From a virus, in UHGV virus genome UHGV-0305822: a DNA stretch of 64,000 nucleotides. One strand, 5' to 3'. The notes under the pieces were generated by a model, which was not told the DNA's origin, made no database searches, and worked only from the letters and a program-made list of their open reading frames with translations. This document shows positions 12,185-59,415 of the stretch, in pieces. Made by a program: the position numbers and the translations under genes. Numbering within the stretch: position 1 is the first letter of the stretch; each line of letters opens with the position of its first letter.

Positions 12185-13390
12185 TTATTTCGTACCCGCT
12201 TCTGCCTGAACGTCATCACGGGACGTCAAGTTAGCGTTAACGTGTACTGGAGCCTGAACCACACCACCGTATTTCTTGTGGAGATAGCCTGTGTGTGGGT
12301 TATCCGCCGCAATATGGTTTTGCAGGTTCTGATTCGCCTGACTGATCGCGTTCGTGTTATTCGCAACCTGTTGTTTAAGCGCATCCAGGTTTTGTTGCAG
12401 ATTATCAATTTTCTGATCGGACTCATTACCCCGTTGTTCTAACGCAGCAATGCGCTGAATCGCTTGGTTGAGTTTGGTGCTCAGATCGTTGATATTTTTC
12501 TGTAACTGTAACACTAGCGAATTTAGGTTCGCCAATGCCAATGCCATTTTCTGGTAGTTTTGTGCAACGATGTTAAGTTGGTCGTTCCACGCTTCCAAAG
12601 ATTTGACAACAGCATCAATACGTTTTCCTAACGCTTCATCCGCTTTCTTCAACGCATTAATATCAGTAATGGTTGCATCGATGGCAGACTGTACATCACG
12701 GATAAGTGCACGGATCTCCGTTTCTGTTAACCCGTTAACCTGGTGAATATCCAGATGGTGGACGTTACCCGTGGCGTTAATGTGCGCGTTCAGCGCGTCC
12801 AGGAAATCGTTTTTCAGGCTTTCGAGAATCGCTTTGATGTTCTCAAGCTGTACAGCATCGCCCGCCGTTATCGCATCTTTAATGCCAGCGAGCACTGTAA
12901 TGATATATTCGAAGCCGTAAATATCGCCGACGTCTTTATACGTCGGTGCCGACGGAAATGTATCTGGAACATTTCGCAAGTCTTTAAAGCCAACAGTTCG
13001 ATTATCGAGATTCAACTCAGCAATCGCCTGTTCTATCGCAGTCACGTTTGCCGACTGCGGACCCCCGACCACTTGCGCCGAAACCGTGATATCGGTCGGA
13101 ATCGCGGTGTTCGTTACAACAACCGCCATTACCACTTCCCGGTTCTTCGTCAATTTCTCGTAAGCCGGGTGTGCAAAAATCAACTCATAGTCCGTTCCGC
13201 GCTCATACGTCGCATCGGGGCGGTTAGCAACCCGCAAGCGGAACGTATCAGCATAAAACGGACCGTCAGGAAAAGCAAACGCACGGTTAACTTTACCTGT
13301 ACCTAACGTAACCTGACGCTCCACGGCGTTAGAGGTTAGGGTTCCCGTTAAATCTAAAGGGTATTGGTATACAATGGAGGCCATGGCCAC
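12185..13390 (-). CDS. tail fibre-like protein (401 aa) with C-terminal coiled coil
   Basis: N-terminal FPDGPFY ... GTDYEL motif shared with the three giant ORFs; long heptad-like Q/N/L-rich region. Confidence 0.6.
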   Translation of the reverse strand: MAMASIVYQYPLDLTGTLTSNAVERQVTLGTGKVNRAFAFPDGPFYADTFRLRVANRPDATYERGTDYELIFAHPAYEKLTKNREVVMAVVVTNTAIPTDITVSAQVVGGPQSANVTAIEQAIAELNLDNRTVGFKDLRNVPDTFPSAPTYKDVGDIYGFEYIITVLAGIKDAITAGDAVQLENIKAILESLKNDFLDALNAHINATGNVHHLDIHQVNGLTETEIRALIRDVQSAIDATITDINALKKADEALGKRIDAVVKSLEAWNDQLNIVAQNYQKMALALANLNSLVLQLQKNINDLSTKLNQAIQRIAALEQRGNESDQKIDNLQQNLDALKQQVANNTNAISQANQNLQNHIAADNPHTGYLHKKYGGVVQAPVHVNANLTSRDDVQAEAGTK

Positions 13391-13424
13391 TCTCCTTAAT
13401 CCGAGACGTCCTTGTCTCGTGGCG

Positions 13425-18608: not shown

Positions 18609-18621
18609 CGTAAAGACTCCT

Positions 18622-18664
18622 ACTTTTAAATAAAATGGATACCCCTCCCCATTACAGGGAGGGG
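18622..18664 (-). terminator. terminator hairpin between 1401-aa and 1727-aa fibre genes
   Basis: Stem CCCCTCCC/GGGAGGGG followed on minus strand by ATCCATTTTATTTAAAAG. Confidence 0.5.
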
Positions 18665-18702
18665 TTACCTACGGACACACAACTGCCCGCAGGCAGCCTG
18701 TC

Positions 18703-22908: not shown

Positions 22909-22918
22909 AAAATTCTCC

Positions 22919-25900
22919 TTAATCGCGAATGATTACCGCCTGCACTTTATTGTTGGTGTCGATAAACGACATTACGCGCTCCTTGTTAAGATAAGGAGGT
23001 ATCGGTAACGCAGCGTAATCCGCCAGGTTGTTATTAAATTCAGTTGCCACTAACGCATTAAGCGTTTCAGGGTCTGAACTGACACCGGTCAATTCCATAA
23101 CGCGCACACGATTTAATGAGGAATAGTTGCTAATATAGTCTAACAACGTACCATAGACTTTATTCGCGGTTGTGCTATCTGCCGTAGAACGGATGTTGGC
23201 ACGAACTTCATCCTCATAAAGTCCCCCTAAACCGTAGTAAATAGGGGTATACGGATCGTTAACGATAGGTGCGATATTGAACCCTGTTAGACGGTCAGTT
23301 AGAGGGATTTTCTGCGTAGCTCCCCCTGCTGCCGTGCAACTTACGTATTTATCAGTCGCAGATAAAAACACCACGATGGTATACGTAGTGCCCGCTAAGG
23401 TCAATGTTGCGTTAAACGTTATTGCGTTATTTGCAGCACGGGTGTGGGTAAACGTTACGTCAGGTTGTAACGTATTCCACGGCGCAGGCGTAACACGCTT
23501 CGTTGGTGTGAAACCTAACACTACCGATTTCCCGCTACCGAAGTTCAAACCGAACCCTGCGTAACAATATTCACCGTTGCTGTCAGTTAAACGATAACCA
23601 CGAGTGATAAGTAACGACAACCGCATAAACTCGCCGTCGGTGTTTTTCCAACAACCTAAAACAGTTTCTAGCACCGTGCCGGTTTTTGCGTTGCTTTCTG
23701 TTTCCCAACTTACCCGCATTCCTGCGTTCTTAAAAGCTGGGAACATGTTGTGGATAAACCCGTGTAGGTTATCGCTTACCCCTTTCGCGTCAAAAATCCA
23801 CTTGGATGCGAGCTGGTCGTATTTCACCCCGTCTAAAGCTTTATACTGCCCACCGGCAACATAACGCCAATCTGCTTCACCGCGTACTACTGCCTGGAGT
23901 CCAGAAGCCCAGCAAGGTGCGCCTACCGTTAAGTTAGCTAACCCAAGCGTTGCACGTGACGCGGAGCGCTGAATGTGTGCGTTGTCATCGGCTTTATGAT
24001 CTTTCAGTTCACGGAAATCACCCAACCGTGTGACATTACGCATCTCCGTAACGAACACCTCAGAAATGTCGTTAACACCAATCAACCCTACACGCGTCAT
24101 GGTATCCGTTTCAGCCTGACTGTAGCTGTCGTGGACAATATACTTCGCTTTGTTATCAACGATATCAACAAAAATCCCTGCGTAGATTTCTGTATTCAAT
24201 TTCGGAAAACGTTCACTGACGTTAATCGTCATCAACGGAACGTCGTATGTTTCACCACCGATAAAATACGTTGAAGCTGGAAGCGTGACCAGAATTTTGT
24301 CTTTGACCGTAAGGTCTATTAAGTCGTTACCAGACTCACCAAAACGTATAATGTCAAGACGTGCCTCCGAGTCAACGCCGCTGACAGCGCGCTCCAATTT
24401 TTCAATCTGGGAAGTCTGCGCCATTACCACACTCCCATCGAGTGCTAAAGTCGCATCATCCACATCCAGACCAAATTTAATCAGACCACGTTGCGCTGTG
24501 GTTGCGTTCCCAGTACCAAAAGCGGTAAACGGGTGTTGGTGAACTTTAGGCGAGTATTTATCTAACTCCGCACGTTGTGCTGTAGAAATCGGTAAATCGA
24601 CATCGGGCGTATTCGCAACGTTACCTAAACCAAAGGTAATCTTATCGATAGTAACCGAGCTGGTAAGTTGCATGTCGTTAATGTACGATTTAACTGCAAC
24701 TAATTTACCGGTGAACTCCGCATCGAGTTTTTCAATCAGTGCTGGCGTTGCTGCAAGGTTTTCAGCGGTACCGAACTCATCGGTCAACTGCCAAGCTGCC
24801 AGAGCTGTTGTATCGGTCGCGGTAGGGAGAATAAAGGTCGCTACGAACGGCGAGGCTTTTATCCCGCTACCGGTGATCGTAACCGTTGTTGTCGAGTTTG
24901 CGTAGAATAAACCTGTACCACCTGCGGTATTGCCTGGTAGATACGGGGCCACGGTGGTGGGGTCTAAAAGTTTTTTACCACGCCACTGTAACCCTCGATC
25001 ATCAGGATACAACATAAGCTGGTTAGTACCTGCTTGGAACGTTACGGGGTTGTTACCCACGTTAACATCAGTAGAACCTTGACCGATGAACTTAATGGAT
25101 TTCGGATCAACGACAAACTGAGCGCCTAAACGTGTTTCGTCAACAACATCCGGTGCTTTCTTAATGGTAACCGTGTTACCTTTGTTTTGCGAACTAATGG
25201 TAACGGCGTCGGCAACATTATTGATCAGCGATTTAAAGTGGTGCTGATTCTCTAATGCTTCTAACGCGGCGTCCATGTTATTGAAGTTAATCCGACCGCT
25301 ATACGTTTTACTGTTTACGGTAATAACGACGTCAAACACATTCCCTGTACGCTTCAGTTGAAAACGTAGCGTAAAATCCCCATCCGGTATTGCCGGATTA
25401 GGAGCTTGTGAAATATACCGAACTGCCGGTACCGGACTCCCGTAACCGTGCAACGCCAGTTCGATAGTAAGAGTACCGGACCAGACTTCACCGCTAATCT
25501 CTACGTACTTACCGGAGTTACTACCAGGATTTTCGTAGAAACGTAAACCAACCCTACCGACCGCTTCATTACCAGACGCTGTTTTACGACCAGTAACAAT
25601 AAAGTCTATATCTTGCAGGTTGGCAGGCACCGCATTAAAGTTAGCACTGAAACCGCTTTTCGCTCCTGTGTAACGAAGCGCGCCGTGATATCTGTGACCT
25701 CTACTAACATAGCTTTCGCTAAAATAAGGACTCACGTATTTCGACATCGAAACCGGATCAACTTCCGTCGTGAACGAAGTAAAACCCGGAAGTGTGGTAA
25801 TCGTGCCGTTAACGTTCTTGCTCGCCGATTCACGAAGCAGTTTTTTCTGTGCGGTTAACGTTGCTTGTGTTGGGTACTTAGCATTAACGTAATCCGTTAA

Positions 25901-27241
25901 CTGCTGTTTCGTTTTCCCGTAAGCTAACGCGGCATCCGACGCAATACCATTCAGCTCTAACGCACGGATCGGACCCCACGTATCGGTGTGCGGGTTGTCC
26001 TTACGTGTAACGTGTTCGTGTGCAGGCGCGTTACGATACAGCTGCTCAACTAACTGATGGTATTTGACTATTAACTGGTAGACATCGTTATCGACGTCAG
26101 GTTCTGGTGCGCCGGGTAAAGAACGAATTTGAATATAATCGTTTTCGGCCGCATACCAGTTTAAATTAATGTTCGTTTTAAACTTCAACCATTTAGCAAC
26201 ATCCGTTTTCGAATACCCTGCCGAGAACTCATCAGGCGGTGTATCGACATTGAATGTGTAATCCATGGTCTGTTTATTTGTTTTTACTACGATGACGTAA
26301 ACACCGTTTCCGGGTTGACGGGTTACACTAAAATCGATATCGTTTTTTAACTCATCGTCAGTTAAACCGTTGATTAACGTATAATCGTAGTTTGTTGAAC
26401 CGCTACCAATAGCGACCGTTAAGACCAGTGAGATTTTGCGCTGTTTTAGCTGCAACCGTAGAATACTTGCACCGCCGTTAGCATAACAGAGCATCCAATC
26501 GATCTGTTCGTTTGGATTCAATTTCGTCATGTCTGGCAGAATAGCAGGAATTCTGTGTTTCACTGACAGGGCGTAGTCGTTAAAGGTTGCAGTTTTATAA
26601 CTCAAGCTATAACGATGACGGGTAGTGTTGTAGGTGAAGCCACCTTTATTGTCGTATACGGCATACTGCTCGGAAGTGATAACCTTGCTATTAGCACGGT
26701 ATTCTAAATCCAGGGTATTGCGTGCGATGGGGTTAAGTCGACTCACGACTTCCCCTAACGAATCGCCTAATCCAGCAATAGCCTGCATTAATTCCAGTTC
26801 ACCTTTCCAATTCTCCCAATCGAACTGGATATCGACCGGCGGAAAGTAAACGTCCCCGATGACGGTGTCCCACTGACACGCAGACGGGTATTTATCTTTA
26901 TTGAGTTCGCGTTCTGCGGTAATCTGTTGTTGGGTAGCCTGACCACAACCAACGGCGTGGTAATCTACCGTAAAATTCGATTTGTATTTGTCATTAACAA
27001 TCCAAATCATCCCGTGAATGAGATAGGCTGTGCGCAACATACCGGTCTCGTACGGGTGTGTAATAACGTAATCGTCGCCTAAGGTCAGTGTTTTGCCGCC
27101 GCTCTTGACCACCAGGGATGTGGTGAAAAAAGGGGCGTGGGCAGGTACCAACATTCGGTATTTCGTACCAATGACGGCGACCGCTTCACCGGTTATTTTA
27201 TTCCCCGGTTTTTTGAAGTGTGGGTCTAGGACGACAGCCAT
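22919..27241 (-). CDS. large tail fibre protein (1440 aa)
   Basis: N-terminal HAPFF ... GDDYVI motif; TTAQRGLIKFG fibre-repeat-like segment; only 10 nt from next gene (co-transcribed). Confidence 0.65.
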   Translation of the reverse strand: MAVVLDPHFKKPGNKITGEAVAVIGTKYRMLVPAHAPFFTTSLVVKSGGKTLTLGDDYVITHPYETGMLRTAYLIHGMIWIVNDKYKSNFTVDYHAVGCGQATQQQITAERELNKDKYPSACQWDTVIGDVYFPPVDIQFDWENWKGELELMQAIAGLGDSLGEVVSRLNPIARNTLDLEYRANSKVITSEQYAVYDNKGGFTYNTTRHRYSLSYKTATFNDYALSVKHRIPAILPDMTKLNPNEQIDWMLCYANGGASILRLQLKQRKISLVLTVAIGSGSTNYDYTLINGLTDDELKNDIDFSVTRQPGNGVYVIVVKTNKQTMDYTFNVDTPPDEFSAGYSKTDVAKWLKFKTNINLNWYAAENDYIQIRSLPGAPEPDVDNDVYQLIVKYHQLVEQLYRNAPAHEHVTRKDNPHTDTWGPIRALELNGIASDAALAYGKTKQQLTDYVNAKYPTQATLTAQKKLLRESASKNVNGTITTLPGFTSFTTEVDPVSMSKYVSPYFSESYVSRGHRYHGALRYTGAKSGFSANFNAVPANLQDIDFIVTGRKTASGNEAVGRVGLRFYENPGSNSGKYVEISGEVWSGTLTIELALHGYGSPVPAVRYISQAPNPAIPDGDFTLRFQLKRTGNVFDVVITVNSKTYSGRINFNNMDAALEALENQHHFKSLINNVADAVTISSQNKGNTVTIKKAPDVVDETRLGAQFVVDPKSIKFIGQGSTDVNVGNNPVTFQAGTNQLMLYPDDRGLQWRGKKLLDPTTVAPYLPGNTAGGTGLFYANSTTTVTITGSGIKASPFVATFILPTATDTTALAAWQLTDEFGTAENLAATPALIEKLDAEFTGKLVAVKSYINDMQLTSSVTIDKITFGLGNVANTPDVDLPISTAQRAELDKYSPKVHQHPFTAFGTGNATTAQRGLIKFGLDVDDATLALDGSVVMAQTSQIEKLERAVSGVDSEARLDIIRFGESGNDLIDLTVKDKILVTLPASTYFIGGETYDVPLMTINVSERFPKLNTEIYAGIFVDIVDNKAKYIVHDSYSQAETDTMTRVGLIGVNDISEVFVTEMRNVTRLGDFRELKDHKADDNAHIQRSASRATLGLANLTVGAPCWASGLQAVVRGEADWRYVAGGQYKALDGVKYDQLASKWIFDAKGVSDNLHGFIHNMFPAFKNAGMRVSWETESNAKTGTVLETVLGCWKNTDGEFMRLSLLITRGYRLTDSNGEYCYAGFGLNFGSGKSVVLGFTPTKRVTPAPWNTLQPDVTFTHTRAANNAITFNATLTLAGTTYTIVVFLSATDKYVSCTAAGGATQKIPLTDRLTGFNIAPIVNDPYTPIYYGLGGLYEDEVRANIRSTADSTTANKVYGTLLDYISNYSSLNRVRVMELTGVSSDPETLNALVATEFNNNLADYAALPIPPYLNKERVMSFIDTNNKVQAVIIRD

Positions 27242-38220: not shown

Positions 38221-38225
38221 CGTTT

Positions 38226-38268
38226 GGGAGAACCTTCGGGTTCTCCCTTTCTTTATTTTTTTCTTTTT
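38226..38268 (+). terminator. rho-independent terminator
   Basis: Stem GGGAGAACC / GGTTCTCCC, loop TTCG, then long T-rich tract. Confidence 0.65.
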
Positions 38269-38298
38269 ACACCACACTCCGTCTTTATGGAGGTGGGT

Positions 38299-40803
38299 AT
38301 GCTAAAAGTTGAACGCATTATACTCAAAGGTTTTACGGGGATGGGGTTACATGAAATTGAAACCTTCGATTTCACTATCCAGTCTCCAACAACAATTATC
38401 CTGGGTGGGAACGGCTGCGGGAAAACCAGTCTACTGTCTGTGTTCTTACCCTTAGCACCGGCTAAAACCGAATTTAGGGACGGCGGTTCTTACACAAACT
38501 ACTGTTTAGTTGGCGATCAACGCTATCGATTCAAAGTTGCCCGTAAAGGCAACTCTTTGGTTTGTGATATTGAGAACTTGACCACGGGGACAAAGATCGT
38601 CGAGCAAGGTAATGCGAAAGTCTACAACTCCCGTGTTGAAGAAATCACGGGTATTACGAAAGAGATTAAAGAACTATTAAATGGTGAGGTGTTGTTAACC
38701 GATGCGGGAACCGAATTACGCCGCAAATGGTTTTACCGTTTAAGTACCTCTGACCTCACTTACGCGTTAGGGTTTTATCAGCGTTTACGTAAAAACCTTA
38801 CTGCCTTAAATGGGGGTATTGAAATCACCAGCCGCAAGATCGCCGAATTACGGACGCGTGTTATTGAGAACGAGGAAGAACGGCAGCAGTTAGCGACGAG
38901 ATTAAAAGGTTTGGAATCGGATTTACGTGAACTGAACCGAGAAATCGAACAGTTGCCAGGATTAAATCGTGCCGTCACCATCGAAACAATCCAAGCGTTA
39001 TTAAACAGCTTGGGCCCAACCATCGACGCAATATTACAACATCGTGGTGGCCTGCCTACTGATGAACAGATACTGACCGCGCGACAAAACGAAGCTACGG
39101 CCCGCGAAGCTGTCGTGTCTACTGAAACAGAGGTATCGATGTTGAATAAAGACTTGTCGTTATTAATGGATGAGTCGACACGACAAGACTACCTGATGCG
39201 GAATCACGAAGGTCTCAAGAATACGCTGGCACGTTTACGTGAGTTACTTACCAAATGGGACACCGAACATCTCTTTCCGGGTCTATTTAACGACAACATC
39301 AATTTAGACCAACTTCGTGCGGCTACAGATGCGCGTGTTTGGGGGCAACGGTTGGGAACAACACTAGACGCAATTCATTCAACCGAAAAACTTAACGTTT
39401 TGGAAGAACGACTTCTGGTGATGGATCAAAAAACCGCAGGGATGCGGGATAGACTCCAGCGAGTGGAGAACGTTTTACAGAATTTAAATCACGAACGTAA
39501 TCACTACTTAGAAACAGCGGAAGTGGATTGCCCGCAGTGTCGGTTTAAGTTTCGGCCCGGTGTTACGCGTTCTTTACCTGAACTTGAGTCTTCGATTCGC
39601 GGACAACAACAGCAGCGCACGGAACTGCAAACACAGTTAGAGGCCCTATTACGCGATCGTGTTGAATTAGAATCTGATGTAACTTATATGCGGCAGGTTC
39701 GTGAGATTGTACTGACGTATTCAAAGGACCCGGTATTGAGCATGTTCTTTAAGCGTTTGCAAGAACGTAACGTTTTCACAGAATCACGCGAACAGTTCGG
39801 GAGTCTATGCGCAGCGTTTGACAGTGAGTTGTACTCTGCTATTGAGTACCATGAAACCCGACAACGGTTAGTGAAGGCGGAAAAAGAATGGCAGGATGCC
39901 GTAGCGGCCGTTGGTAACGTCGATGGTGCTTTACAACAGAAAATCGCCTTCCAACAGTCACGATTAGGTAAAGCCACAGAAATGCTCTCAATGCGTCGTA
40001 GAGAGCACGAACTGGCTAACACGACACTTACCTATCTGGTGAATGTTAAACGTGCTGTAGATGATTTCAGTGCGTTATTCGAACGGTTAGAGAGTGATGT
40101 TAAGGTTACGTTGACAAATACGGTCGTCGAGGAACTCTTACGTGCACGAGAAGGGAAGCTGGATGCTTTTACAACCGCACGCGAACGTTATCGTCAGATG
40201 GAAAATGAATTGAATCAGCTCAACAGTTTGGAACGCGAACTTGCTGACTTACAAGCCCAGCAGTTCAATAACAAACTGATGATTCAAGCCTTCTCGCCAG
40301 AAAAGGGTGTACTTAGAAAGTATTTTTACAACGCTATCGTTAGAATCACAGAGTTAATGACGCGTTATATCGAACAAGTCTGGACGTACCCCATGCGCGT
40401 TATGCCTTGTGACCTCACTGACGGCGATTTGGATTATACTTTTCCTGTCCAGCTAAAAACGCATCCTGAGCCTGTTCCTGACGTGCGTAAAGGGTCTAAG
40501 GCGCAGCGTGCGATATTTAATCTGATGTTCAGGCTGACCGCGTACAAAGCGCTGAAGTTGCATCAGTTTCCGTTGCTTTTGGATGAGCCTTCGGAAGGCA
40601 TGGATGAGGAGCACCGTAACAACCTGGTCGGCTTTATTAAAACGTTAGCAAACTCGGGAGAATTTTCTCAACTGTTGGTAGTCTCCCACGAAGCCGAGGT
40701 TCATTCTAAACTTAATGAAGCATCGTACTGTGTCATCGAACCGGAAGGGGTGACATTGCCTGCGGTGTATAACGAAGGAGTAAAAATTGTTTATGCAAAC
40801 TGA
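38299..40803 (+). CDS. Rad50/SbcC-like ABC-type ATPase with zinc hook
   Basis: Walker A GGNGCGKTS near N-terminus; long coiled-coil-like middle with central CPQC (zinc-hook-like); C-terminal LLLDEPSEGMD Walker B/D-loop; ATG at 38299 after GGAGGTGGG (ORF track start 38224). Confidence 0.7.
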   Translation: MLKVERIILKGFTGMGLHEIETFDFTIQSPTTIILGGNGCGKTSLLSVFLPLAPAKTEFRDGGSYTNYCLVGDQRYRFKVARKGNSLVCDIENLTTGTKIVEQGNAKVYNSRVEEITGITKEIKELLNGEVLLTDAGTELRRKWFYRLSTSDLTYALGFYQRLRKNLTALNGGIEITSRKIAELRTRVIENEEERQQLATRLKGLESDLRELNREIEQLPGLNRAVTIETIQALLNSLGPTIDAILQHRGGLPTDEQILTARQNEATAREAVVSTETEVSMLNKDLSLLMDESTRQDYLMRNHEGLKNTLARLRELLTKWDTEHLFPGLFNDNINLDQLRAATDARVWGQRLGTTLDAIHSTEKLNVLEERLLVMDQKTAGMRDRLQRVENVLQNLNHERNHYLETAEVDCPQCRFKFRPGVTRSLPELESSIRGQQQQRTELQTQLEALLRDRVELESDVTYMRQVREIVLTYSKDPVLSMFFKRLQERNVFTESREQFGSLCAAFDSELYSAIEYHETRQRLVKAEKEWQDAVAAVGNVDGALQQKIAFQQSRLGKATEMLSMRRREHELANTTLTYLVNVKRAVDDFSALFERLESDVKVTLTNTVVEELLRAREGKLDAFTTARERYRQMENELNQLNSLERELADLQAQQFNNKLMIQAFSPEKGVLRKYFYNAIVRITELMTRYIEQVWTYPMRVMPCDLTDGDLDYTFPVQLKTHPEPVPDVRKGSKAQRAIFNLMFRLTAYKALKLHQFPLLLDEPSEGMDEEHRNNLVGFIKTLANSGEFSQLLVVSHEAEVHSKLNEASYCVIEPEGVTLPAVYNEGVKIVYAN

Positions 40804-50274: not shown

Positions 50275-51795
50275 ATGAAGAACGTTGATGTTGCAGTAAT
50301 TTACACGGATGGTAGCCATTTGACCTCCCCGCTCGGTACAGGAGCGGGGATTCATGGATACTTATTTAATCGTGAAGCGATTGAGGATGGTCGGGTTTAC
50401 CGCCATCCCTCTATTCCCGAGGGGATTACGACGTCAGGATACCGCCAGATAAACAAGGATGAAAAACTTCCACCTTTACCAGAAACCGTGGAGTTTATTG
50501 ACGGCGTTGTGCCTGTACCAAAAATGTCACACTCCGACGTTGCAGAACTCGTGGCTTTCCTGACCGTCTTCGAACACGCACCTTTCGTTGCCAAAAACTA
50601 TGTTATCTATATCGATGCCTCTTACGTTGTCAACACGTATAACGATTGGATTGATGGTTGGGCTGCACGCGGCTGGCGTCGTGCAGACGGTACGCCTATT
50701 GCGAACTTGGAATTAATCCAACGGATGTGGGAAGTTAAACAGCGGTTAAAGAAAGAAGGGAAAGGTATCCGTGTCCTTAAAATTAAAGGGCATTCAGGAC
50801 GCTATGGAAACGAGCGTGCCGACGAGTTAGCACGGAAAGGTTCAAGTATTTCGGCTCGAGGTGATGGGTTAGACTATACACCGTATTGGTCAAAAGACGA
50901 GATGCCTGAGGAAGAACAGCAACCAGAAGTTGTTGGTGAAGGTGTCAATTTGTCTGCTTTTCCCGATATCTGTGTTACGAAGTTCTGTTACCCGATGGTG
51001 AACGAACCGCATCCCACTGTTACAGTTAACGGTAATAAACTTTATTACATGTTCGGTGGGAACCATGCAAAACAGAAGGACGATATCGTCTTCGTTGGTA
51101 AGTACATTCCAGATGCACAATTCTGCGTAATGTTTACCAAAGAACCATGGAACAACGTATACGAGTTGGTAAATACCCACTCTGCGAAAGCGTGGGAAGG
51201 GGTGCCCCGTTTACGTCAGTTTGATCCCATCGCCGTTGTTTTTAACTTATTCGTAAAACGTAAGAAGTTCGCAGAAGCCGCAGGTAACGGTATTCCTGTC
51301 GATCGGATGCATTTTAGCGAAGACAAAAACCTGTGGATGTTTGAAGATCTTTCGATTACACGAATTCTTCGTCCCGCGTTATTGTCTTATCGCTGCATTA
51401 CGATTCGTGATGAGCTTGCAGGTTGGTTACGCGATGCCATGGAGGGGAAAAACTCAGTCGTAATGAACGACATTACTGACCTGCTTTACGATGAGAAAGG
51501 TAAGCCGAAGAAAGACTTTTATCGTAACGTAGATAAAGGTTTTGACGTAACCATCCATATCCCTGGTAGCAAAAACAAGGTTAAAACCATCCTTACTCGA
51601 GGTATCGACATACCGACGCGTACGGAAATCAACCGTATGAAAGAACCAGAAGGACGATTCTACGTGGCGGTAAGGCGTCCAGAACGGCAGTATATCGAAT
51701 ATGCGTTGGTTTATATTGGGGAAAAATATCATGGGTTGTGGTGTGGCTATTATTCAAACAAACGAATATTGACGGATAAGGAGCTTGAATGCTGA
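50275..51795 (+). CDS. RNase HI domain fused to ~310-aa C-terminal domain of unknown function
   Basis: VAVIYTDGS; DVAELVAFL; IDASYVVNTYNDWIDGWAARGWRRADGTPIAN; KGHSGRYGNERADELARKG all parallel E. coli RNase HI motifs (TDGS; NN.MEL.A; TDSQYV..GI..W...W..RGW.TA; KGH.G...NE..DELA). Confidence 0.75.
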   Translation: MKNVDVAVIYTDGSHLTSPLGTGAGIHGYLFNREAIEDGRVYRHPSIPEGITTSGYRQINKDEKLPPLPETVEFIDGVVPVPKMSHSDVAELVAFLTVFEHAPFVAKNYVIYIDASYVVNTYNDWIDGWAARGWRRADGTPIANLELIQRMWEVKQRLKKEGKGIRVLKIKGHSGRYGNERADELARKGSSISARGDGLDYTPYWSKDEMPEEEQQPEVVGEGVNLSAFPDICVTKFCYPMVNEPHPTVTVNGNKLYYMFGGNHAKQKDDIVFVGKYIPDAQFCVMFTKEPWNNVYELVNTHSAKAWEGVPRLRQFDPIAVVFNLFVKRKKFAEAAGNGIPVDRMHFSEDKNLWMFEDLSITRILRPALLSYRCITIRDELAGWLRDAMEGKNSVVMNDITDLLYDEKGKPKKDFYRNVDKGFDVTIHIPGSKNKVKTILTRGIDIPTRTEINRMKEPEGRFYVAVRRPERQYIEYALVYIGEKYHGLWCGYYSNKRILTDKELEC

Positions 51796-52457
51796 TCGTT
51801 TATAGTGAGGTCTTGTCAAAAGCCCCTCGGTTTTTACAAACTCACTTTATGTATAACGCACGGCAGTATTGGGGCTTTAAAGCCCCTTACTCCGAAGATT
51901 GGGAAGTTGTGGAAAAGTTAGCATTTGTGTTTTCTCTTTCGTTGTTGTGGGAGATCATTGCACTATACAACGCAGGTTGTGATATCCCGGAGAACGGCTT
52001 TTTCCAACAACACCTATTCCAAAAATTCACAGCATCGGTAGAAAATCATGAAGTGCGCAAGGAGTGTATCGGCTACGCCGAGCATTCTGAAGAATTGAGA
52101 AAGATTTCCAAATTAGTTATCACGCGGACATGGGCTGAATTCGAAACTTACCCCGAAAAAATAATTTGGTTTAATCGTGAACAGTTTATTAAAGAGGCAG
52201 TCAGTCAACATCCCGTTCGATTAATCGTGTTAAAGCCGTCCGATCTCGCCTTACGCCACACCTATTCGTCTCCAGAGGAAATCGTTTTTTCCTCTGGAAC
52301 AACAGATTATGGTATTTTTAAACAAGGAGATTCTTGGATTCTTCCACACGATTTAGACGGGTATTTGCTCAGTAGCGATCAAATACATTCGGGTTATGAC
52401 TCACAGGTGAAGGAGTTTACAGTCGATCCTTTTTTCGCTAAAAATATTCTTAGATAG
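51789..52457 (+). CDS. hypothetical protein (222 aa)
   Basis: ATG overlapping upstream stop. Confidence 0.5.
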   Translation: MLIVYSEVLSKAPRFLQTHFMYNARQYWGFKAPYSEDWEVVEKLAFVFSLSLLWEIIALYNAGCDIPENGFFQQHLFQKFTASVENHEVRKECIGYAEHSEELRKISKLVITRTWAEFETYPEKIIWFNREQFIKEAVSQHPVRLIVLKPSDLALRHTYSSPEEIVFSSGTTDYGIFKQGDSWILPHDLDGYLLSSDQIHSGYDSQVKEFTVDPFFAKNILR

Positions 52458-52493
52458 ATATTATCCAGGTGTAACACCATTGGAGTTATTAAA

Positions 52494-53231
52494 ATGCTAA
52501 AAGTTTATGTCCCTCAATTACAACGTATCAATCCCTCGTTGTTCGAGGGAATCTTTTATAAAATTTGGCCGCAATACTTCAATGAACATTTGAAGGACCC
52601 AAAGTGGTCAACCGTACAAGGAGAATTCTTTTATACCGCACAGACTGCCTGCACAAACGTCTTTACTCGTCTCATCGCTGAAGTTATTGAGGGCGTCAAT
52701 ACCAACCGAAACTTTGACCTTCGCGACGTCATAATAGATCTCTCAGGGGTCTTCGATAACTACGATTGTGATGACGCCGTATTCGAGCATTTCTCTTCTG
52801 AGGATGTCTGGGAAGCCGTTTATCAATGGCTAGAATACTACGTGAACTTTCTACTCTCTCCAGAGATGTTAGAAAGTTTCAATAAAGCACTCTACCCCAT
52901 TTATAACGACTTAATGAACGTTAAACGGACAAAGAACCTCGTCGGTTTCTGGTTTTCGATTTACGACGCCGAAAGCAGATTGTGGGAAAAAGAAATGATT
53001 GCTTTTGGTATCGAGCGCGGTGATTACGACGAATTGTATCGCGGTTATTGGCCCTTCGATCATCGTGAAAACAGTTGTCAAGGCAATCCGTACTTGTGGT
53101 CTTTTTATTTCTGTAATCAGACTGGTGTTATTTATCTTGAAGACGCTGGCGTACAAATCCCTAACGGTGCTGACGTAACATACTGCCAGTTACGTAAAGA
53201 CCGTGACGACATCATTTATCAGGGCTATTAA
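52494..53231 (+). CDS. hypothetical protein (245 aa)
   Basis: ATG after GGAGTTATTAAA. Confidence 0.5.
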   Translation: MLKVYVPQLQRINPSLFEGIFYKIWPQYFNEHLKDPKWSTVQGEFFYTAQTACTNVFTRLIAEVIEGVNTNRNFDLRDVIIDLSGVFDNYDCDDAVFEHFSSEDVWEAVYQWLEYYVNFLLSPEMLESFNKALYPIYNDLMNVKRTKNLVGFWFSIYDAESRLWEKEMIAFGIERGDYDELYRGYWPFDHRENSCQGNPYLWSFYFCNQTGVIYLEDAGVQIPNGADVTYCQLRKDRDDIIYQGY

Positions 53232-53232
53232 C

Positions 53233-53775
53233 ATGAAAATACTTATCGATTTCTCACTCAGTGAGTCACGGGGCAAATTAAACAAACTGTTAAGTGGGAT
53301 GCGTAGCCGCGTTGCGTTTGAACTGCACGACGCGATAGCAGTACATGAGAACAAGATTTCTGAAGAACACAGTGGGGTCGAAATTACTATCCTGGATTCA
53401 GAAGCGATGGTGAATAATCTCATTGAACAGTTAGAGCGAAAAATCCATTCGGCCATGACATACCCACATTTGGTGCGGGTAACTGATCCCGATACGGATA
53501 TTCACCTGATTCTTGAGAAAGCCTTTCTACATGCCGCGCATTACTTACAGAATAATGCTCCAGATACCCTCGATGAAGTGTATGTCGCCATATTGCAGCG
53601 ACAATCTTCAACGACGGATATAATAGACACAACGTGTTGGAGCGATATTCTTACCAACGAAACAATGTCCCGTATCCGGGATATTTTCCTTGAGACACTC
53701 GGGTTAGTTGAGAAAATCTGCCATGCCGAGCTCATCTACCTGTCATCAAAATACGGTCAACCTAAAGGAGTATAA
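53233..53775 (+). CDS. hypothetical protein (~180 aa)
   Basis: In-frame ATG right after upstream stop (ORF track start 53203 overlaps previous gene). Confidence 0.5.
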   Translation: MKILIDFSLSESRGKLNKLLSGMRSRVAFELHDAIAVHENKISEEHSGVEITILDSEAMVNNLIEQLERKIHSAMTYPHLVRVTDPDTDIHLILEKAFLHAAHYLQNNAPDTLDEVYVAILQRQSSTTDIIDTTCWSDILTNETMSRIRDIFLETLGLVEKICHAELIYLSSKYGQPKGV

Positions 53776-53777
53776 TC

Positions 53778-54302
53778 GTGGATATTTTAATTCAGCTTCG
53801 TAAGAAAACAACCATTGCCACACCGATAGCGCTAGAGGAGAAAATCTCTGGCGCAGTTGCACGCAAGCTCTGTGGTGCTCATGGCTTTAGCGACCATCAG
53901 GAGCGGGTCGTTACTGTCGCCACATTACACAACTTACGTCACACAGTGCATTACTGTTTAGTTGACAACGTCACCATCACTCTTGATGATAACGTAAATG
54001 TCGACCAACTGCGACGCGAAATTGTCCACAAGATCGAGGCTTACAATAGACGTTTCGATCGGGCGTGTACGCGTTTAACTAATGACGAGGCACTACGAAA
54101 ACGTTTGAAACTTGAAATCGAATATGCAGCGCAACGATACGGGATTGGCGGTACCGAACCGTGTCTGACTGAACAAGAAATCACGTTAGCAATTGAGGTT
54201 TATACCACTCTCTGTTGCGCCATCCTAAAAGAGACCAACCACGAAATTACAAAAGCGTTGTTAAACACCGCAGACAAACTCTCCCCAATTTTAGGACAAT
54301 AA
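53778..54302 (+). CDS. hypothetical protein (174 aa)
   Basis: GTG start after AAAGGAG. Confidence 0.5.
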   Translation: MDILIQLRKKTTIATPIALEEKISGAVARKLCGAHGFSDHQERVVTVATLHNLRHTVHYCLVDNVTITLDDNVNVDQLRREIVHKIEAYNRRFDRACTRLTNDEALRKRLKLEIEYAAQRYGIGGTEPCLTEQEITLAIEVYTTLCCAILKETNHEITKALLNTADKLSPILGQ

Positions 54303-54303
54303 A

Positions 54304-54792
54304 ATGAACGTAAATGATATTATCAATCTTAGTAAAAGTGATATTGTGCACGAATTTCTCAATCACGGTGCGCGTGTAAGAAAAGAAATTGAAGAAAAGT
54401 TGACCCCAATGGTTGCTTCCACTCCTTGGATGGCAGGATACGCCGCTGCCTACTTCAGTTGCCAGAGCGGAAAAGCATACATAGCTAACCTGTTTGATTT
54501 CTTCAATCCATCAAACGACCACATAACAGAAACAGACGTTCGACAACGCCTTCGCGATTGCCGGTATCAGTTCTTAAGAAATGTTACTGATGCGTACAAT
54601 TTAGAGCAATTTCCTACACCGATTGTTCCCTATACAGAACCGGAATGGGAAAATTTTTATAGACGAATTTGGATTGGTGGGTCTTACGTGGCAGATATAA
54701 TGGAAATCATCGAACGTAGTGAAAACCAACTTGCTCTGCAACTATGGGAGTGGTTAAAAGCTAATTATCCTGATTACGTCAAAATCGACTAA
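54304..54792 (+). CDS. hypothetical protein (162 aa)
   Basis: ATG 2 nt after upstream stop. Confidence 0.5.
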   Translation: MNVNDIINLSKSDIVHEFLNHGARVRKEIEEKLTPMVASTPWMAGYAAAYFSCQSGKAYIANLFDFFNPSNDHITETDVRQRLRDCRYQFLRNVTDAYNLEQFPTPIVPYTEPEWENFYRRIWIGGSYVADIMEIIERSENQLALQLWEWLKANYPDYVKID

Positions 54793-54798
54793 TACACA

Positions 54799-54829
54799 CC
54801 CTAGCTTCGGCTAGGGTTACTTTATTTTT
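54799..54829 (+). terminator. rho-independent terminator
   Basis: Stem CCCTAGC / GCTAGGG, loop TTCG, then TTACTTTATTTTT. Confidence 0.6.
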
Positions 54830-54851
54830 AACCATTTTAGGAGAATAAACC

Positions 54852-55778
54852 ATGTATTTGTACAAAAGTAAAAAAGTAAAAGGTATTAAAGACTGCCTTA
54901 GACAAATGGGGTCTCAGCATCTTGAAAATGTCATGGAAGAAAACCGAATAAAGGAAAATCCTGTCTCGAAATGGATAAAAAAGAATCGTAACCATTTAAC
55001 CAATGCCTTTATACCTTACGACGCTGAGTTAGGTCTCAAAGATCCCCGTTCCCTTCACGCACAAACATTGGCAATTGGATGGCTATACGGTGGTGCTTCC
55101 TTAATATCCAACCAAGCACTTAGAGAACTTGTTTTCGAGACTGAGATGCCCAGTAAATTCCCTGAAGAATGGTTGGACTTTATACCTACTTGGACTGTGG
55201 CAATCGACGTAGGTAAAGAGGATGAGACTTTCTTTCTCGGCTATCGAAAAAACGGGAAGAGAAGGTTTATCATAATTGCCACAAATACTGATTACGGGTT
55301 AACAGAAGGCGTTACCACAATTGCCACTTGTTCGTTAGAGCTTCGTAGTGCAGGGAACGGGCTTGTGGAAATCGACTATGCCGACGGTGTGGAAAACGAA
55401 CAAGAAAAGATGTTGTGGTTATCTCTGGCCAAAGCCGCCACTTCGATGATATTTCTGTGCACGCTAATCCCGCCTAACTACAGGGAGACTTTTAATGATA
55501 TTAAGTTCAAGGAAATCAAAAAGAACGGTAGTATTAGTTACGACGTTAAACCTCGTGAACGCGATGTTAAGATAGATATCACGCCAGGACAAGTGAATTA
55601 TCTAAAAGGGTTTAACACTGACTTGAAAACCATGCAGGGTATCAAACATGCTAAGGCTGCCCACATCCGTCGCGCACACTGGCGCAGATATTGGGTCGGC
55701 CCTAGAAATGGTGAAAGAAAGAGAAAACTTTGTTGGATTCCACCTACCTTTGTCCGTGGCTACGTACCCCACAATTAA
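54852..55778 (+). CDS. hypothetical protein, HIRRAHW family member 1 (308 aa)
   Basis: C-terminus AAHIRRAHWRRYWVG...WIPPTFVRGY paralogous to next gene. Confidence 0.55.
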   Translation: MYLYKSKKVKGIKDCLRQMGSQHLENVMEENRIKENPVSKWIKKNRNHLTNAFIPYDAELGLKDPRSLHAQTLAIGWLYGGASLISNQALRELVFETEMPSKFPEEWLDFIPTWTVAIDVGKEDETFFLGYRKNGKRRFIIIATNTDYGLTEGVTTIATCSLELRSAGNGLVEIDYADGVENEQEKMLWLSLAKAATSMIFLCTLIPPNYRETFNDIKFKEIKKNGSISYDVKPRERDVKIDITPGQVNYLKGFNTDLKTMQGIKHAKAAHIRRAHWRRYWVGPRNGERKRKLCWIPPTFVRGYVPHN

Positions 55779-55802
55779 GCTAAAGTGTTTAGGAGTATTA
55801 AA

Positions 55803-56702
55803 ATGACAACGAATAATAGACTTTACGGGAAAGCGCTAAGACGCATGAGTGAACAAATAGAAAAGGCACACCAAACAATTCACGGATTAGATCAGTGTCG
55901 CTTTATTCGGTTCATTAACGAGCATAAACGTCAAATACCCGTAACGTTTATGCCAGTTAAAGATCCGACCTATCGTGAGTATGGCGTTACCGAACAGATT
56001 CCCAGACTGATTAAGCAGTCTCTGGGACTAGGATGGCAATACGCTGCTGTTGAAATCATCTCGGATGAAGAACTGATGGCGCTCTTAGCAAAAACTGAGA
56101 GACTAAAAAATATCCCGTACTTCTGGATAGAAACCATCCCTTCATTTACTTTCTCGGTTACTGTAAATCTCGACGAATGTCCAATCACGTTATTTATCGG
56201 AAGACGTCTTTACGAAGGTGAAGAAGTTCTCTTTGTGATGTCATGCGAAGAACATGACGAGTCGGTATACATGGAGTTTGAGATTTACACGATCGATAAA
56301 AGTAATGATGATTTCGTGGAGTTAAAGCCGCTCCTTACTTCGGTTAAGGAGAATCAACGACTACTCGACGCCGTCTATATCGGGCTATATCTTTCATCAC
56401 GAATTAAGCGAACCGAACGCGAGAAGAAAGAATTTCGCGGAAGGTCCATTCGTTATGTTCCTGATACAGAAATTCGCCCACGTAGTGAAGCAGTCGTTTT
56501 AGATGTAAGTCCGGTACAATGGGAAGATATAGAGCAGCAACGCAAGGAAGGACACGAGGTTTGTTTGGCGATTTATTGTGCCGCACATATCCGTCGTGCG
56601 CATTGGAAGCGTGTATGGTGTGGTAAAATGTCAGAAATGCGCTGGCGCGAATGGCGATGGATAGCGCCGAGTTACATTTCTGGATTTTATCGTGGGAAAT
56701 AA
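55803..56702 (+). CDS. hypothetical protein, HIRRAHW family member 2 (~300 aa)
   Basis: C-terminus AAHIRRAHWKRVWCG...WIAPSYISGF; ATG at 55803 after TTAGGAGTATTAAA. Confidence 0.55.
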   Translation: MTTNNRLYGKALRRMSEQIEKAHQTIHGLDQCRFIRFINEHKRQIPVTFMPVKDPTYREYGVTEQIPRLIKQSLGLGWQYAAVEIISDEELMALLAKTERLKNIPYFWIETIPSFTFSVTVNLDECPITLFIGRRLYEGEEVLFVMSCEEHDESVYMEFEIYTIDKSNDDFVELKPLLTSVKENQRLLDAVYIGLYLSSRIKRTEREKKEFRGRSIRYVPDTEIRPRSEAVVLDVSPVQWEDIEQQRKEGHEVCLAIYCAAHIRRAHWKRVWCGKMSEMRWREWRWIAPSYISGFYRGK

Positions 56703-56710
56703 ATAGTTTA

Positions 56711-56759
56711 CCCCTAGACCGTGTGGTCTAGGGGTAACTTTACTTTTTTTTATTTTTTG
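56711..56759. terminator. bidirectional terminator
   Basis: Stem CCCCTAGACC / GGTCTAGGGG, loop GTGT, then TTTACTTTTTTTTTATTTTTT; between convergent genes. Confidence 0.65.
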
Positions 56760-57505
56760 TTTGCCTTAAGCGCTTTTAAGCGTTCGGCAGTAACGTTCAG
56801 GCATTCGATTAACTCGTTAACCTGTTTCATGAACAGACCAAACAGCTCCACCCAATCGGACGCAAAATCTAACATCATCGTCAGTTCTTTTGCTACATTC
56901 GGATGAATGTTTTGTTCAGACAAGATTTCCGACGTAGTGCGAATGGACTCGATTGACTTGTCGATGTTCGTCCGTAAACGTTTCGTAATTTCAACGTTCA
57001 GGGCTTTAGCACGATTGAACGCAACGTCAATCTCAGACGCGCTGTGGTACGTCTTCTCAATTGGTCGCTGGTCAATAACGTTATTAGTGTACGATTTCGC
57101 TAATAAGTTAACCAGGTCTTTCGGGTTAACATTACGTAACGGCAAATTAACGTTTTTATAACGGAAACCAATCGGTAATGACAGTACCCCCACATCATGT
57201 GTAAGGGCCGAAAGTTGTTTATCGACCGGCAGCAGAATACCCGTATAGATGTTTTGTAGTGAACTCCATACGGATTCTAAGCGGTTCAAGTGATCCATCA
57301 CGTAGGTATTAAACCCAGGTGGGACGATAACCAACATTCCCGCAAAGTGTAGGAATTTTTCTTGTTGCATCCACTTGGAAACGTCCGACATCTCGTCATA
57401 AGTGGTTAATGCAATCTCTTGTTGAGGGCCGCTAAACCCTTTCGGTAAGATTGCAGACGCTTTAGCGGCGAAGCTAGATAACGCTGCAAGTGGATTTACA
57501 TTCAT
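56750..57505 (-). CDS. hypothetical protein (251 aa)
   Basis: Isolated minus-strand ORF between plus-strand blocks. Confidence 0.5.
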   Translation of the reverse strand: MNVNPLAALSSFAAKASAILPKGFSGPQQEIALTTYDEMSDVSKWMQQEKFLHFAGMLVIVPPGFNTYVMDHLNRLESVWSSLQNIYTGILLPVDKQLSALTHDVGVLSLPIGFRYKNVNLPLRNVNPKDLVNLLAKSYTNNVIDQRPIEKTYHSASEIDVAFNRAKALNVEITKRLRTNIDKSIESIRTTSEILSEQNIHPNVAKELTMMLDFASDWVELFGLFMKQVNELIECLNVTAERLKALKANKK

Positions 57506-57603
57506 TCTAAAACCTCGGATTATAAGTCAGGGTTACATAGTAAAGTCTTTTTACAGTTCACCCAAACCTTATGACCGAGACTCTTCCATAAAGGTAAAGC
57601 TCG

Positions 57604-57903
57604 ATGAAAATCAAATTACTGACTCGAAACACCACACCGCGTTTAGAACCGGAAATTTATCTGACGCCTGTTAAAAAAGGTCAGAACGGTAAACCTATTC
57701 AAGTTGGAAAAGTCTTGAGCGTAACGTCGTGCCCGAGCGGTAAACGTGTTATGGAACTGGAAATTGACGAGCGTAACAAACGCCGTTTCGAGTCTATTGA
57801 AAACCCTTATCCTGAAAATGCGGAAGAAGTTACTGAGTGGGTAGAGACCTACTTTGAATTCTGGCACAACCGCCGTCTTCTTCTTCCGACCAAGAATCGT
57901 TAA
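57604..57903 (+). CDS. hypothetical protein (99 aa)
   Basis: ATG-initiated ORF upstream of recombinase-like gene. Confidence 0.45.
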   Translation: MKIKLLTRNTTPRLEPEIYLTPVKKGQNGKPIQVGKVLSVTSCPSGKRVMELEIDERNKRRFESIENPYPENAEEVTEWVETYFEFWHNRRLLLPTKNR

Positions 57904-57918
57904 TTATCGGAGCGCTAA

Positions 57919-59415
57919 ATGGCAGGCCCAACTAAGCAAGTTATCGGTGAAGTAATTCGTCCACGTTTTAACGTTTACACCATCATGGATCATGCCTTAG
58001 GTAACTACGAAAAAGGTGAAGATGGTTTGTACTACCTTAACGGTGGTTTTGCCCACATCATGGGTTTCGCAGGTCGCGGTAACACCTTTAAATCCACCTT
58101 GTTAGATTTCTGTATTTTCCAAATCCTGCAACGTTATAAAGCAGAGTGGGGTTCTAAGTACGATACAGAAGTGTCCGCTGCCCTCGATCGTTTAGAAACT
58201 GGGTACATCTCTGCCATGAACGCCAACGGTATCGACGACGGAACATCCGTACTGGAGCTTATCCACGAAGGTCGTTATAACCTGGTCGGTTCTGACGTAA
58301 TGCCCGGGGAACAGTATTACAGTGATTATATTCGTGATGAAGTTGAAAAACGCTTCAAACAGTATATGTCTGGTAAGACCCGCGTAACACCGTTCCCCGA
58401 TCCGGTTCGTCGTAAGTTAAAAGAAATCCTGGACCCCTGGCTTTATTCTATCGACTCCCTGTCAGAGTGGCATTCCAGTTCGCTGGAAGACAAGCACGCA
58501 AAAACGGATATCGGGGATTCTGATCAGAACATCCTGAACGCCCACGATGCGCTGCAAAAATCGAATATGATGAGCCGCTGGCCGTCTGCGTTTGCACGCG
58601 GTGGTTTTTACATGGGCTTCGTGGCACAGATGGCCGATGACTCTGGGAAAGCGATGGCGGGTGGCCGACAGGCACAAAAAGCAAATGCGAAAATTCTCGA
58701 CGACGCCAACGACGATCTAAAATTCGCAGGTATTCCTCGCCGTCAGCTTAGCTTCTTAACAAACTCTTTTATCGTCGCGACGAAATCAGGGGAACTGAAG
58801 AAAGACCAGAGCTATAACGCACAGACCGGTGTTAACGAAGAACTTTATCCGACGTCACGTTCTAAAGCGATGAATGCGTCGGTAAACGACTTGAAGATTA
58901 TCACCTTTACCCAGTATCGTGCGAAGGGTGGTCACACCGGTGTGAAATTCCAGATGATCTTCTCTCAGGAAATGGGTCTGTTGTATCACCTGAGCCTGTG
59001 GCATTATTTAAGTGACACGCTGAAGAAGTCAGACTTTGGTTTCACATCAAGCGGTAGTGGAGGTTCCATCAAAGAACTTGACATTCTACCTGGTGTGAAA
59101 TTCCAACGCACGACAATCCGTGATATGATTTCTGATAACGCACGCTTACGTCGCGCTTTAGAAATCACTGCGGCAATTGCGTATATGCAAAACAACTACC
59201 ATCGTCTTGAAATGAAGTATCATCTCAGCATGGGTGAGATTTACAAACTGATTGACGAGAAGTGGGACTGGAATGAAATTCTGGATAACACGGTAGAATA
59301 CTGGATGTTTAAAGACCAGGAAACCAAAGGCGGTAAACGTACACTGACTGCACGTACCATTCTGGGTATGGCTGTTGATGGACTAGAACCGAAGTTCCTG
59401 ACGAAAAAGAAATAA
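57919..59415 (+). CDS. RecA-superfamily recombinase candidate (UvsX-like)
   Basis: GGFAHIMGFAGRGNTFKSTLL parallels the unusual T4 UvsX P-loop region (GG..SGL.ILAGPSKSFKSN) recalled from memory; not a canonical GxxxxGK[ST]. Confidence 0.35.
   Translation: MAGPTKQVIGEVIRPRFNVYTIMDHALGNYEKGEDGLYYLNGGFAHIMGFAGRGNTFKSTLLDFCIFQILQRYKAEWGSKYDTEVSAALDRLETGYISAMNANGIDDGTSVLELIHEGRYNLVGSDVMPGEQYYSDYIRDEVEKRFKQYMSGKTRVTPFPDPVRRKLKEILDPWLYSIDSLSEWHSSSLEDKHAKTDIGDSDQNILNAHDALQKSNMMSRWPSAFARGGFYMGFVAQMADDSGKAMAGGRQAQKANAKILDDANDDLKFAGIPRRQLSFLTNSFIVATKSGELKKDQSYNAQTGVNEELYPTSRSKAMNASVNDLKIITFTQYRAKGGHTGVKFQMIFSQEMGLLYHLSLWHYLSDTLKKSDFGFTSSGSGGSIKELDILPGVKFQRTTIRDMISDNARLRRALEITAAIAYMQNNYHRLEMKYHLSMGEIYKLIDEKWDWNEILDNTVEYWMFKDQETKGGKRTLTARTILGMAVDGLEPKFLTKKK

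Follow-up and report, generated by a model that had tools for sequence, protein, structure and literature searches.

Tandem AcrVA2/FinQ-family paralogs in an SPN3US-like jumbo phage as candidate mRNA silencers with a shared C-terminal motif

In the 64,000-nucleotide (nt) stretch of virus genome UHGV-0305822 that we analysed (the window), two adjacent open reading frames (ORFs) at 54852-56702, here called paralog A (ORF1) and paralog B (ORF2), fall within the AcrVA2/FinQ family (Pfam PF26125, 'AcrVA2-like'). AcrVA2 is an anti-CRISPR of a Moraxella bovoculi prophage (PDB 7CI1/7CI2; Pfam PF26125) and has been reported as the first prokaryotic protein that destroys a specific mRNA after recognition of the nascent polypeptide (bioRxiv 10.1101/2022.11.29.518452). 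FinQ, which is encoded on IncI-type conjugative plasmids of E. coli and Salmonella, is a protein that inhibits fertility. We consider it probable that A and B are two diverged mRNA silencers of the AcrVA2/FinQ type, with a variable recognition module, a shared effector tail and targets other than Cas12a. The first-pass annotation of this DNA had proposed a paralogous pair with a striking basic C-terminus and had recognised no known family; the pair and the C-terminus stand, and the family is now identified. Lengths are given in amino acids (aa).

54852-55778, + strand: paralog A (ORF1), 308 aa, AcrVA2/FinQ-family protein
55803-56702, + strand, starting at ATG: paralog B (ORF2), 299 aa, AcrVA2/FinQ-family protein

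The two proteins were compared by BLASTP, and their similarity was far above chance (E=1e-20, 24% identity over 277 aligned positions), in agreement with the earlier proposal of a duplicated gene. Every string that had been quoted for the shared mid-region and the basic C-terminus was verified by translation. Both proteins match phrog_6160, of function unknown (ORF1 at 4e-36, ORF2 at 1e-19). Identity between them is 14% in the N-terminal helices, 29% in the GW region, 15% in the middle domain and 44% in the C-terminal domain. The Arg/Trp-rich C-terminus, which had been singled out as striking, is the most conserved part, and its His/Arg motif is essential in AcrVA2. The last 45 aa of ORF1 contain 12 K/R and 1 D/E (isoelectric point, pI, 11.8), and the ORF2 tail contains 10 K/R and 5 Trp (pI 10.6). 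No third copy of the motif was found in a six-frame translation of the window.

In order to place the pair in a family, we used close relatives, profiles and known members. Word-indexed homolog searches gave five close relatives (P0001-P0005, 63-98% identical to the window proteins), all with precomputed PF26125 hits; P0001 is 95% identical to ORF1 and P0004 is 98% identical to ORF2. The match of ORF1 and ORF2 themselves to PF26125 is thus indirect, via the hits on these close homologs. Both tandem genes in each of four metagenomic contigs (L002-L005) also carry PF26125 (gene-table entries for this family that bear no mark are at E<=1e-5). The wider family was reached by exhaustive HMMER search. 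In a set of 1.84 billion representative proteins, a profile of the closest relatives (7 sequences) picked up 601 at E<=1e-3, most of them 300-340 aa long. The motif H.R..H[WFY] was present in 141 of 153 sequences (the five earlier homologs and the listed hits), and the C-terminal signature of the wider family reads PH-I-R-R-A-H-W-H-x-Y-W-t-G-P...W-I-P-P..V.

Among PDB sequences, the 7-sequence profile reached the AcrVA2 chain 7ci1_A through the C-terminal motif (E=0.031). We then used alignment A2, which has 47 sequences with ORF1 first and includes 34 added, more distant hits; its profile matched 7ci1_A at E=6.4e-41 over chain residues 6-318 of 323. A further profile, A3, was built from 14 sequences of the jumbo-phage clade alone, to prevent intermediates from carrying the signal. 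It matched 7ci1 at E=7e-6 in the C-terminal region only, and in hhalign it matched AcrVA2 with 95.4% probability and FinQ with 98.2% (E=4.7e-14, 214 columns, from the GW segment to the C-terminus). The FinQ sequence was that of pHUSEC2011-1, found by searching the AcrVA2 sequence against plasmids; this gave 519 records, for the most part finQ genes of conjugative E. coli/Salmonella plasmids, and AcrVA2 matched finQ by tblastn at E=3e-11. Plain BLASTP of FinQ against ORF1 aligned the C-terminal motif only (E=9e-9 over 39 aa). With the A2 match to 7ci1 and the hhalign match to FinQ, the motif is accounted for by a characterised family, which is the outcome that the first-pass annotation had named as contrary to its own reading. 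No literature was found under the names 'PF26125' or 'AcrVA2-like'.

The residues that matter for AcrVA2 were then located in both paralogs. In AcrVA2, the substitutions H286A, R288A and H291A abolish mRNA downregulation with binding kept, and W79A and D89A weaken activity (Marino et al., bioRxiv 10.1101/2022.11.29.518452). AcrVA2 residues 6-318 were taken from the alignment of A2 to 7ci1, where PDB chain numbering is native numbering plus 1. The corresponding segments are listed below, with ORF2 in the 299-aa numbering.

55068-55109, + strand: ORF1 LAIGWLYGGASLIS segment, contains W77 (AcrVA2 W79)
56022-56063, + strand: ORF2 LGLGWQYAAVEIIS segment, contains W78 (AcrVA2 W79)
55659-55763, + strand: ORF1 C-terminal motif AHIRRAHWRRYWVGPRNGERKRKLCWIPPTFVRGY, AHIRRAHWRRYWVG...FVRGY, with H271, R273 and H276 (AcrVA2 H286, R288 and H291)
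56580-56687, + strand: ORF2 C-terminal motif AAHIRRAHWKRVWCGKMSEMRWREWRWIAPSYISGF, AAHIRRAHWKRVWCG...YISGF, with H262, R264 and H267 (AcrVA2 H286, R288 and H291)

The equivalents of W79, H286, R288 and H291 are kept in both paralogs. D89 is kept in B, as the Asp after the LGLGWQYAAVEIIS segment, and it aligns in A with N87, just 3' of the LAIGWLYGGASLIS segment. In addition, H271, R273 and H276, together with W281, G283 and W295 (ORF1 numbering), are invariant in all 47 aligned sequences. Because of the AcrVA2 mapping and this invariance, HIRRAHW(R/K)R.W.G is read as the conserved effector motif of the AcrVA2/FinQ family.

Remote homology and structure prediction had been suggested as a check on the first-pass annotation, and both were informative, the former through the profiles above and the latter through a model of ORF1 with the layout of the AcrVA2 family. 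AlphaFold with the 7-sequence alignment gave a predicted local distance difference test (pLDDT) of 46, which was unusable, and the prediction was redone with the 47 sequences of A2 (pLDDT 83.6, predicted template modelling score 0.84). In the model, helices at the N-terminus are followed by a beta/alpha middle domain, and the C-terminus has four short strands. A three-domain layout of the same kind has been described for the AcrVA2 family (PMC10846135), and ORF1 is thus predicted to have the AcrVA2 three-domain fold. A Foldseek search of the model against the PDB gave nothing significant, and 7ci1 was not among the matches listed; this discordance most likely reflects a limit of sensitivity at this divergence. 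Against BFVD, Foldseek found 12 viral proteins at E<=1e-3, including proteins of other large Erwinia and Dickeya phages; they are uncharacterised or unnamed, except for one labelled 'putative mycothiosynthase'.

By analogy with AcrVA2, the variable N-terminal helical and middle beta/alpha domains would recognise a specific target polypeptide emerging from the ribosome, and the conserved four-stranded C-terminal domain (H-I-R-R-A-H-W...W.G...W.P) would then trigger loss of the mRNA being translated. A and B probably have different targets, because their recognition parts are ~15% identical and their effector tails 44%. The two targets silenced could be, for example, defence factors of the host or genes that competing mobile elements carry, so that we infer a role in counter-defence or competition. 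Several points weigh against this reading. Identity to AcrVA2 is ~17%. ORF1 has N at the position of D89. In 7CI2 the Cas12a 620-636 peptide is contacted by D129 and D195 of AcrVA2; these two residues lie in segments absent here, and therefore the target and specificity of AcrVA2 are not transferable. Scans of both ORFs and their homologs against Pfam-A and NCBIfam matched no family; AcrVA2 itself scores nothing in the same Pfam-A copy, from which the model is apparently absent, and the Pfam negatives are therefore uninformative for PF26125. Finally, the jumbo-phage members of the family are known from genes alone, and the literature leaves open what the C-terminal domain does biochemically, even in AcrVA2 (bioRxiv 10.1101/2022.11.29.518452).

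This last point also bears on the idea of the first-pass annotation that the tail may bind nucleic acid. Spelled out, the basic Arg/Trp-rich end would itself contact DNA or RNA, as in a transcription or termination factor, and no nascent peptide would be recognised. The tails are indeed very basic (pI 10.6-11.8), the mode of action of the domain is open as stated, and a passage of PMC8744291 that cites Ham & Skurray 1989 relates an older account in which FinQ made tra transcripts end at several sites by Rho-independent termination. We regard direct binding as unlikely, though it deserves the most weight among the four alternatives considered here.

The membership in the AcrVA2 family also raises the question of whether A and B are genuine anti-CRISPRs against Cas12a (type V-A). 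Type V-A anti-CRISPRs are defined by inhibition of Cas12a or binding of its N-terminal LSKT peptide. The pair has family, fold and effector motif in common with AcrVA2, and huge-phage proteins that cluster with AcrVA2 have been suggested as possible anti-CRISPRs (PMC7162821). However, AcrVA2 homologs typically occur where Cas12a is absent (bioRxiv 10.1101/2022.11.29.518452), and phages that form a nucleus already have protection from CRISPR systems that act on DNA (PMC7162821). The recognition domains, which differ so strongly between A and B, are very distant from AcrVA2, and D129 and D195, the residues in contact with the peptide, have no aligned counterpart. The closest cultured relatives of the window phage infect Salmonella, E. 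coli, Proteus and Erwinia. To our knowledge, type V-A systems are not typical of these enterobacterial hosts. Cas12a is thus unlikely as the target, since the recognition residues are not conserved, the family is usually found without Cas12a and the hosts of the relatives are enterobacterial, and we consider a true Cas12a anti-CRISPR function very improbable.

In order to have a better insight into the history of the two copies, we calculated a neighbour-joining tree and compared the alleles of the related contigs. The A clade and the B clade each have 100% support; A groups with single-copy jumbo-phage proteins (85%) and B falls outside them (85%). The topology implies that either the A/B split is old or B is fast-evolving, and as the placement rests on sequences with 21-29% identities we do not regard the split as settled. 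In L002, L003 and L004 most neighbouring genes are 98-100% identical, yet A is 69-71% identical (L002 and L003 versus L004). Between L002 and L004 the A allele has been exchanged and B is 99-100% identical. The window A is 94% identical to the A of L002 on a DNA background that is only ~80% identical, and the window B is only 61% identical to the B of L002-L004.

The exchange in A is confined to part of the gene. In a sliding-window analysis of nonsynonymous and synonymous substitution rates (dN and dS) between L002 and L004, residues 1-200 are 38-74% identical with dS of 0.8-1.6, and residues 201-311 are 90-100% identical, with dS of 0.54 at 201-250, 0.14 at 251-300 and 0 beyond. The high dS in residues 1-200 and its fall to 0 toward the C-terminus indicate that the N-terminal and middle module of A was replaced by recombination in front of a constant tail. 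The overall dN/dS is ~0.085 for the window A versus the A of L002 and ~0.08 for the B of L002 versus L004, and both genes are thus under purifying selection overall.

These values bear on two further alternatives. A and B might be decaying or neutral duplicates without current function, and the gene is in fact dispensable in Salmonella phage SPN3US, which lacks it. However, both ORFs are intact, each has a ribosome-binding site, the low dN/dS points to purifying selection in A as well as B, all family-invariant residues are retained, and both genes are kept across diverged relatives; this explanation is hardly credible and is the weakest that we weighed. Alternatively, A and B could act jointly on one target, as a heterodimer or as sequential partners. 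Their tight linkage and apparent co-transcription would fit (a 24-nt gap, a ribosome-binding site of its own for ORF2 and no intervening terminator), as would the maintenance of the pair in the four related contigs. On the other hand, AcrVA2 and the single-copy relatives (those of Asesino, EC001 and others) function or persist alone, and A and B evolve independently, as the exchange of A next to a near-constant B and the unequal identities of the window copies to their L002 counterparts (94% and 61%) illustrate. Joint action is therefore improbable, somewhat more so than direct nucleic-acid binding. We retain two separate silencers with different targets as the preferred reading.

The arrangement of the pair was read from the DNA and from a terminator scan.

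54798-54830, + strand: terminator-like hairpin (ACCCTAGC-TTCG-GCTAGGGT, at 54798-54817) followed by a T-rich run, by consensus scan only
54839-54843, + strand: AGGAG ribosome-binding site, 8 nt before the ORF1 ATG, by direct sequence reading
55791-55795, + strand: AGGAG ribosome-binding site, 7 nt before the ORF2 ATG at 55803
56708-56737, strand-neutral: putative bidirectional terminator, a hairpin with a 13-bp stem and T-runs on either side

The mechanical call for ORF2 began at a GTG (55785-56702, 305 aa). The true start is almost certainly the ATG at 55803, because of the AGGAG just upstream and because the orthologs P0004 and P0005 begin there. The first hairpin directly follows the upstream gene, ~20 nt ahead of the ORF1 ribosome-binding site, and the second separates ORF2 from the convergent gene at 56750-57505 (- strand). 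The scan showed no terminator-like site between ORF1 and ORF2. With the short gap between the genes free of a terminator and hairpins flanking the pair, ORF1 and ORF2 look like a small two-gene unit or accessory operon. The flanking hairpins were also considered as a repeated regulatory motif, and this was rejected: the pattern CTAGGGKWACTTTA had 4 matches in comparison with 1.4 expected, one of them exact.

Directly upstream of ORF1 lies a hypervariable ORF of 162 aa (54304-54792, + strand). Its product is 55-72% identical among L002, L003 and L004, where most genes around it are 98-100% identical, and 44-48% identical to the window. It has no PHROG match, and a relationship to Asesino gp234, which occupies the same slot, was discarded as there is no similarity. 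This ORF and gene A make up a small hot spot of diversity. Two other small genes of unknown function, at 51789-52457 and 53233-53775 (+ strand; phrog_9472 and phrog_8379), are 57-61% identical to their counterparts in L002-L004, and adjacent genes are 84-87% identical. Divergence is patchy along the early-gene-like block that contains 51789-53775.

As judged from its genes, the window phage is an SPN3US-like jumbo phage of a lineage with named relatives in Chimalliviridae. Its UvsX-like protein is 81% identical to the SPN3US counterpart, and its gene order is that of Erwinia phage Asesino (RNase H ... AcrVA2-like, convergent 251-aa gene, 99-aa gene, UvsX-like, RNA polymerase beta subunit), whose genus, Erskinevirus, belongs to Chimalliviridae. 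When positions 54000-58000 were compared with the phage collection by megablast, no match was obtained, and the phage is thus absent from this collection at ~85% DNA identity or above. No tRNA genes were found in the window. Other genes of the window include the following.

7816-9138, - strand: radical SAM domain protein (phrog_1802, 2e-114)
12185-27241, - strand: four large ORFs of 401, 1727, 1401 and 1440 aa, read as paralogous giant virion proteins because they cross-match PHROGs 2163, 7449, 8078 and 7557 (virion structural protein)
38224-40803, + strand: SbcC-like nuclease subunit (phrog_77, 8e-92)

Distribution among related phages, another check that had been suggested, gave 0, 1 or 2 copies in one slot. 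SPN3US has no copy, and its gp213 is directly followed by the convergent gp214; Escherichia phage EC001 has one copy of 307 aa in the slot; Asesino has one (gp235); the window and the four metagenomic contigs have the tandem pair. A comparison of SPN3US (L007, 186177-187537) with EC001 (L008, 185367-186290) shows the presence or absence of a 924-nt AcrVA2-like gene between otherwise collinear flanks, and the two phages are assigned to one species, Seoulvirus SPN3US. Because the copy number varies between 0, 1 and 2 in one slot, the AcrVA2-like gene is accessory.

A broader proposal, which we offer as speculative and rather doubtful, is that SPN3US-like chimalliviruses possess a set of AcrVA2-like mRNA silencers that are guided by nascent chains, modular in build and shuffled by recombination. 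The two tandem paralogs would have one effector tail in common and differ in their swappable recognition modules, and each would eliminate a different enterobacterial protein at the ribosome. Possible targets would be cytoplasmic, RNA-level or translation-level defences that the phage nucleus cannot block. If this were true, residues 1-200 of the various alleles would together form a natural collection of specificities for peptide recognition. AcrVA2 homologs are widespread, and the locus offers a tractable entry to non-CRISPR targets of the family. It also provides a natural contrast in relatives of cultured Salmonella and E. coli phages, with differing copy number, a constant tail next to differing recognition domains, and exchanged alleles. 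It would be useful for mapping which part of the protein sets specificity. The system as such belongs to a class already known.

Compared with AcrVA2, the window proteins have a similar length (~300-320 aa), the same three-part architecture (helical N-terminal, beta/alpha middle and four-strand C-terminal parts, for ORF1 by model), the conserved W79 and H286/R288/H291, and a location on mobile elements. They differ in the low identity already given, the missing D129/D195 segments and the N of ORF1 at D89. AcrVA2 is encoded by a prophage next to acrVA1 and is directed at Cas12a, whereas here two tandem paralogs, for which Cas12a is an unlikely target, occur in a lytic SPN3US-like jumbo phage whose named relatives are nucleus-forming Chimalliviridae. 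FinQ is of one family with the phage pair, and its enterobacterial host range is that of the cultured relatives of the phage. It lowers F tra mRNA, i.e. it acts on a competitor's genes (bioRxiv 10.1101/2022.11.29.518452; PMC8744291). Unlike the pair, FinQ is plasmid-borne, has the F tra operon as its target and has a longer ORF, up to 363 aa (in L009). AcrVA2 homologs including FinQ have been reported on plasmids and in 'megaphages', usually in genomes without Cas12a (bioRxiv 10.1101/2022.11.29.518452). The direct relatives are the phrog_6160 proteins of Erwinia phage Asesino (gp235), Escherichia phage EC001 (ACEC001_2110) and Salmonella phages SaP7 and JN03, at 21-29% identity. They take up the equivalent place in the conserved gene order, ahead of the convergent 251-aa gene and the UvsX-like gene, but in one copy, in contrast to two in the window and its metagenomic relatives, and all are annotated as hypothetical. 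The named family, its presence in huge phages (bioRxiv 10.1101/2022.11.29.518452; PMC7162821) and the explanation of the motif are thus already known. What is added here is a tandem pair of deeply diverged copies in an SPN3US-like phage, together with a polymorphism of 0, 1 or 2 copies in a single slot and the module swap.

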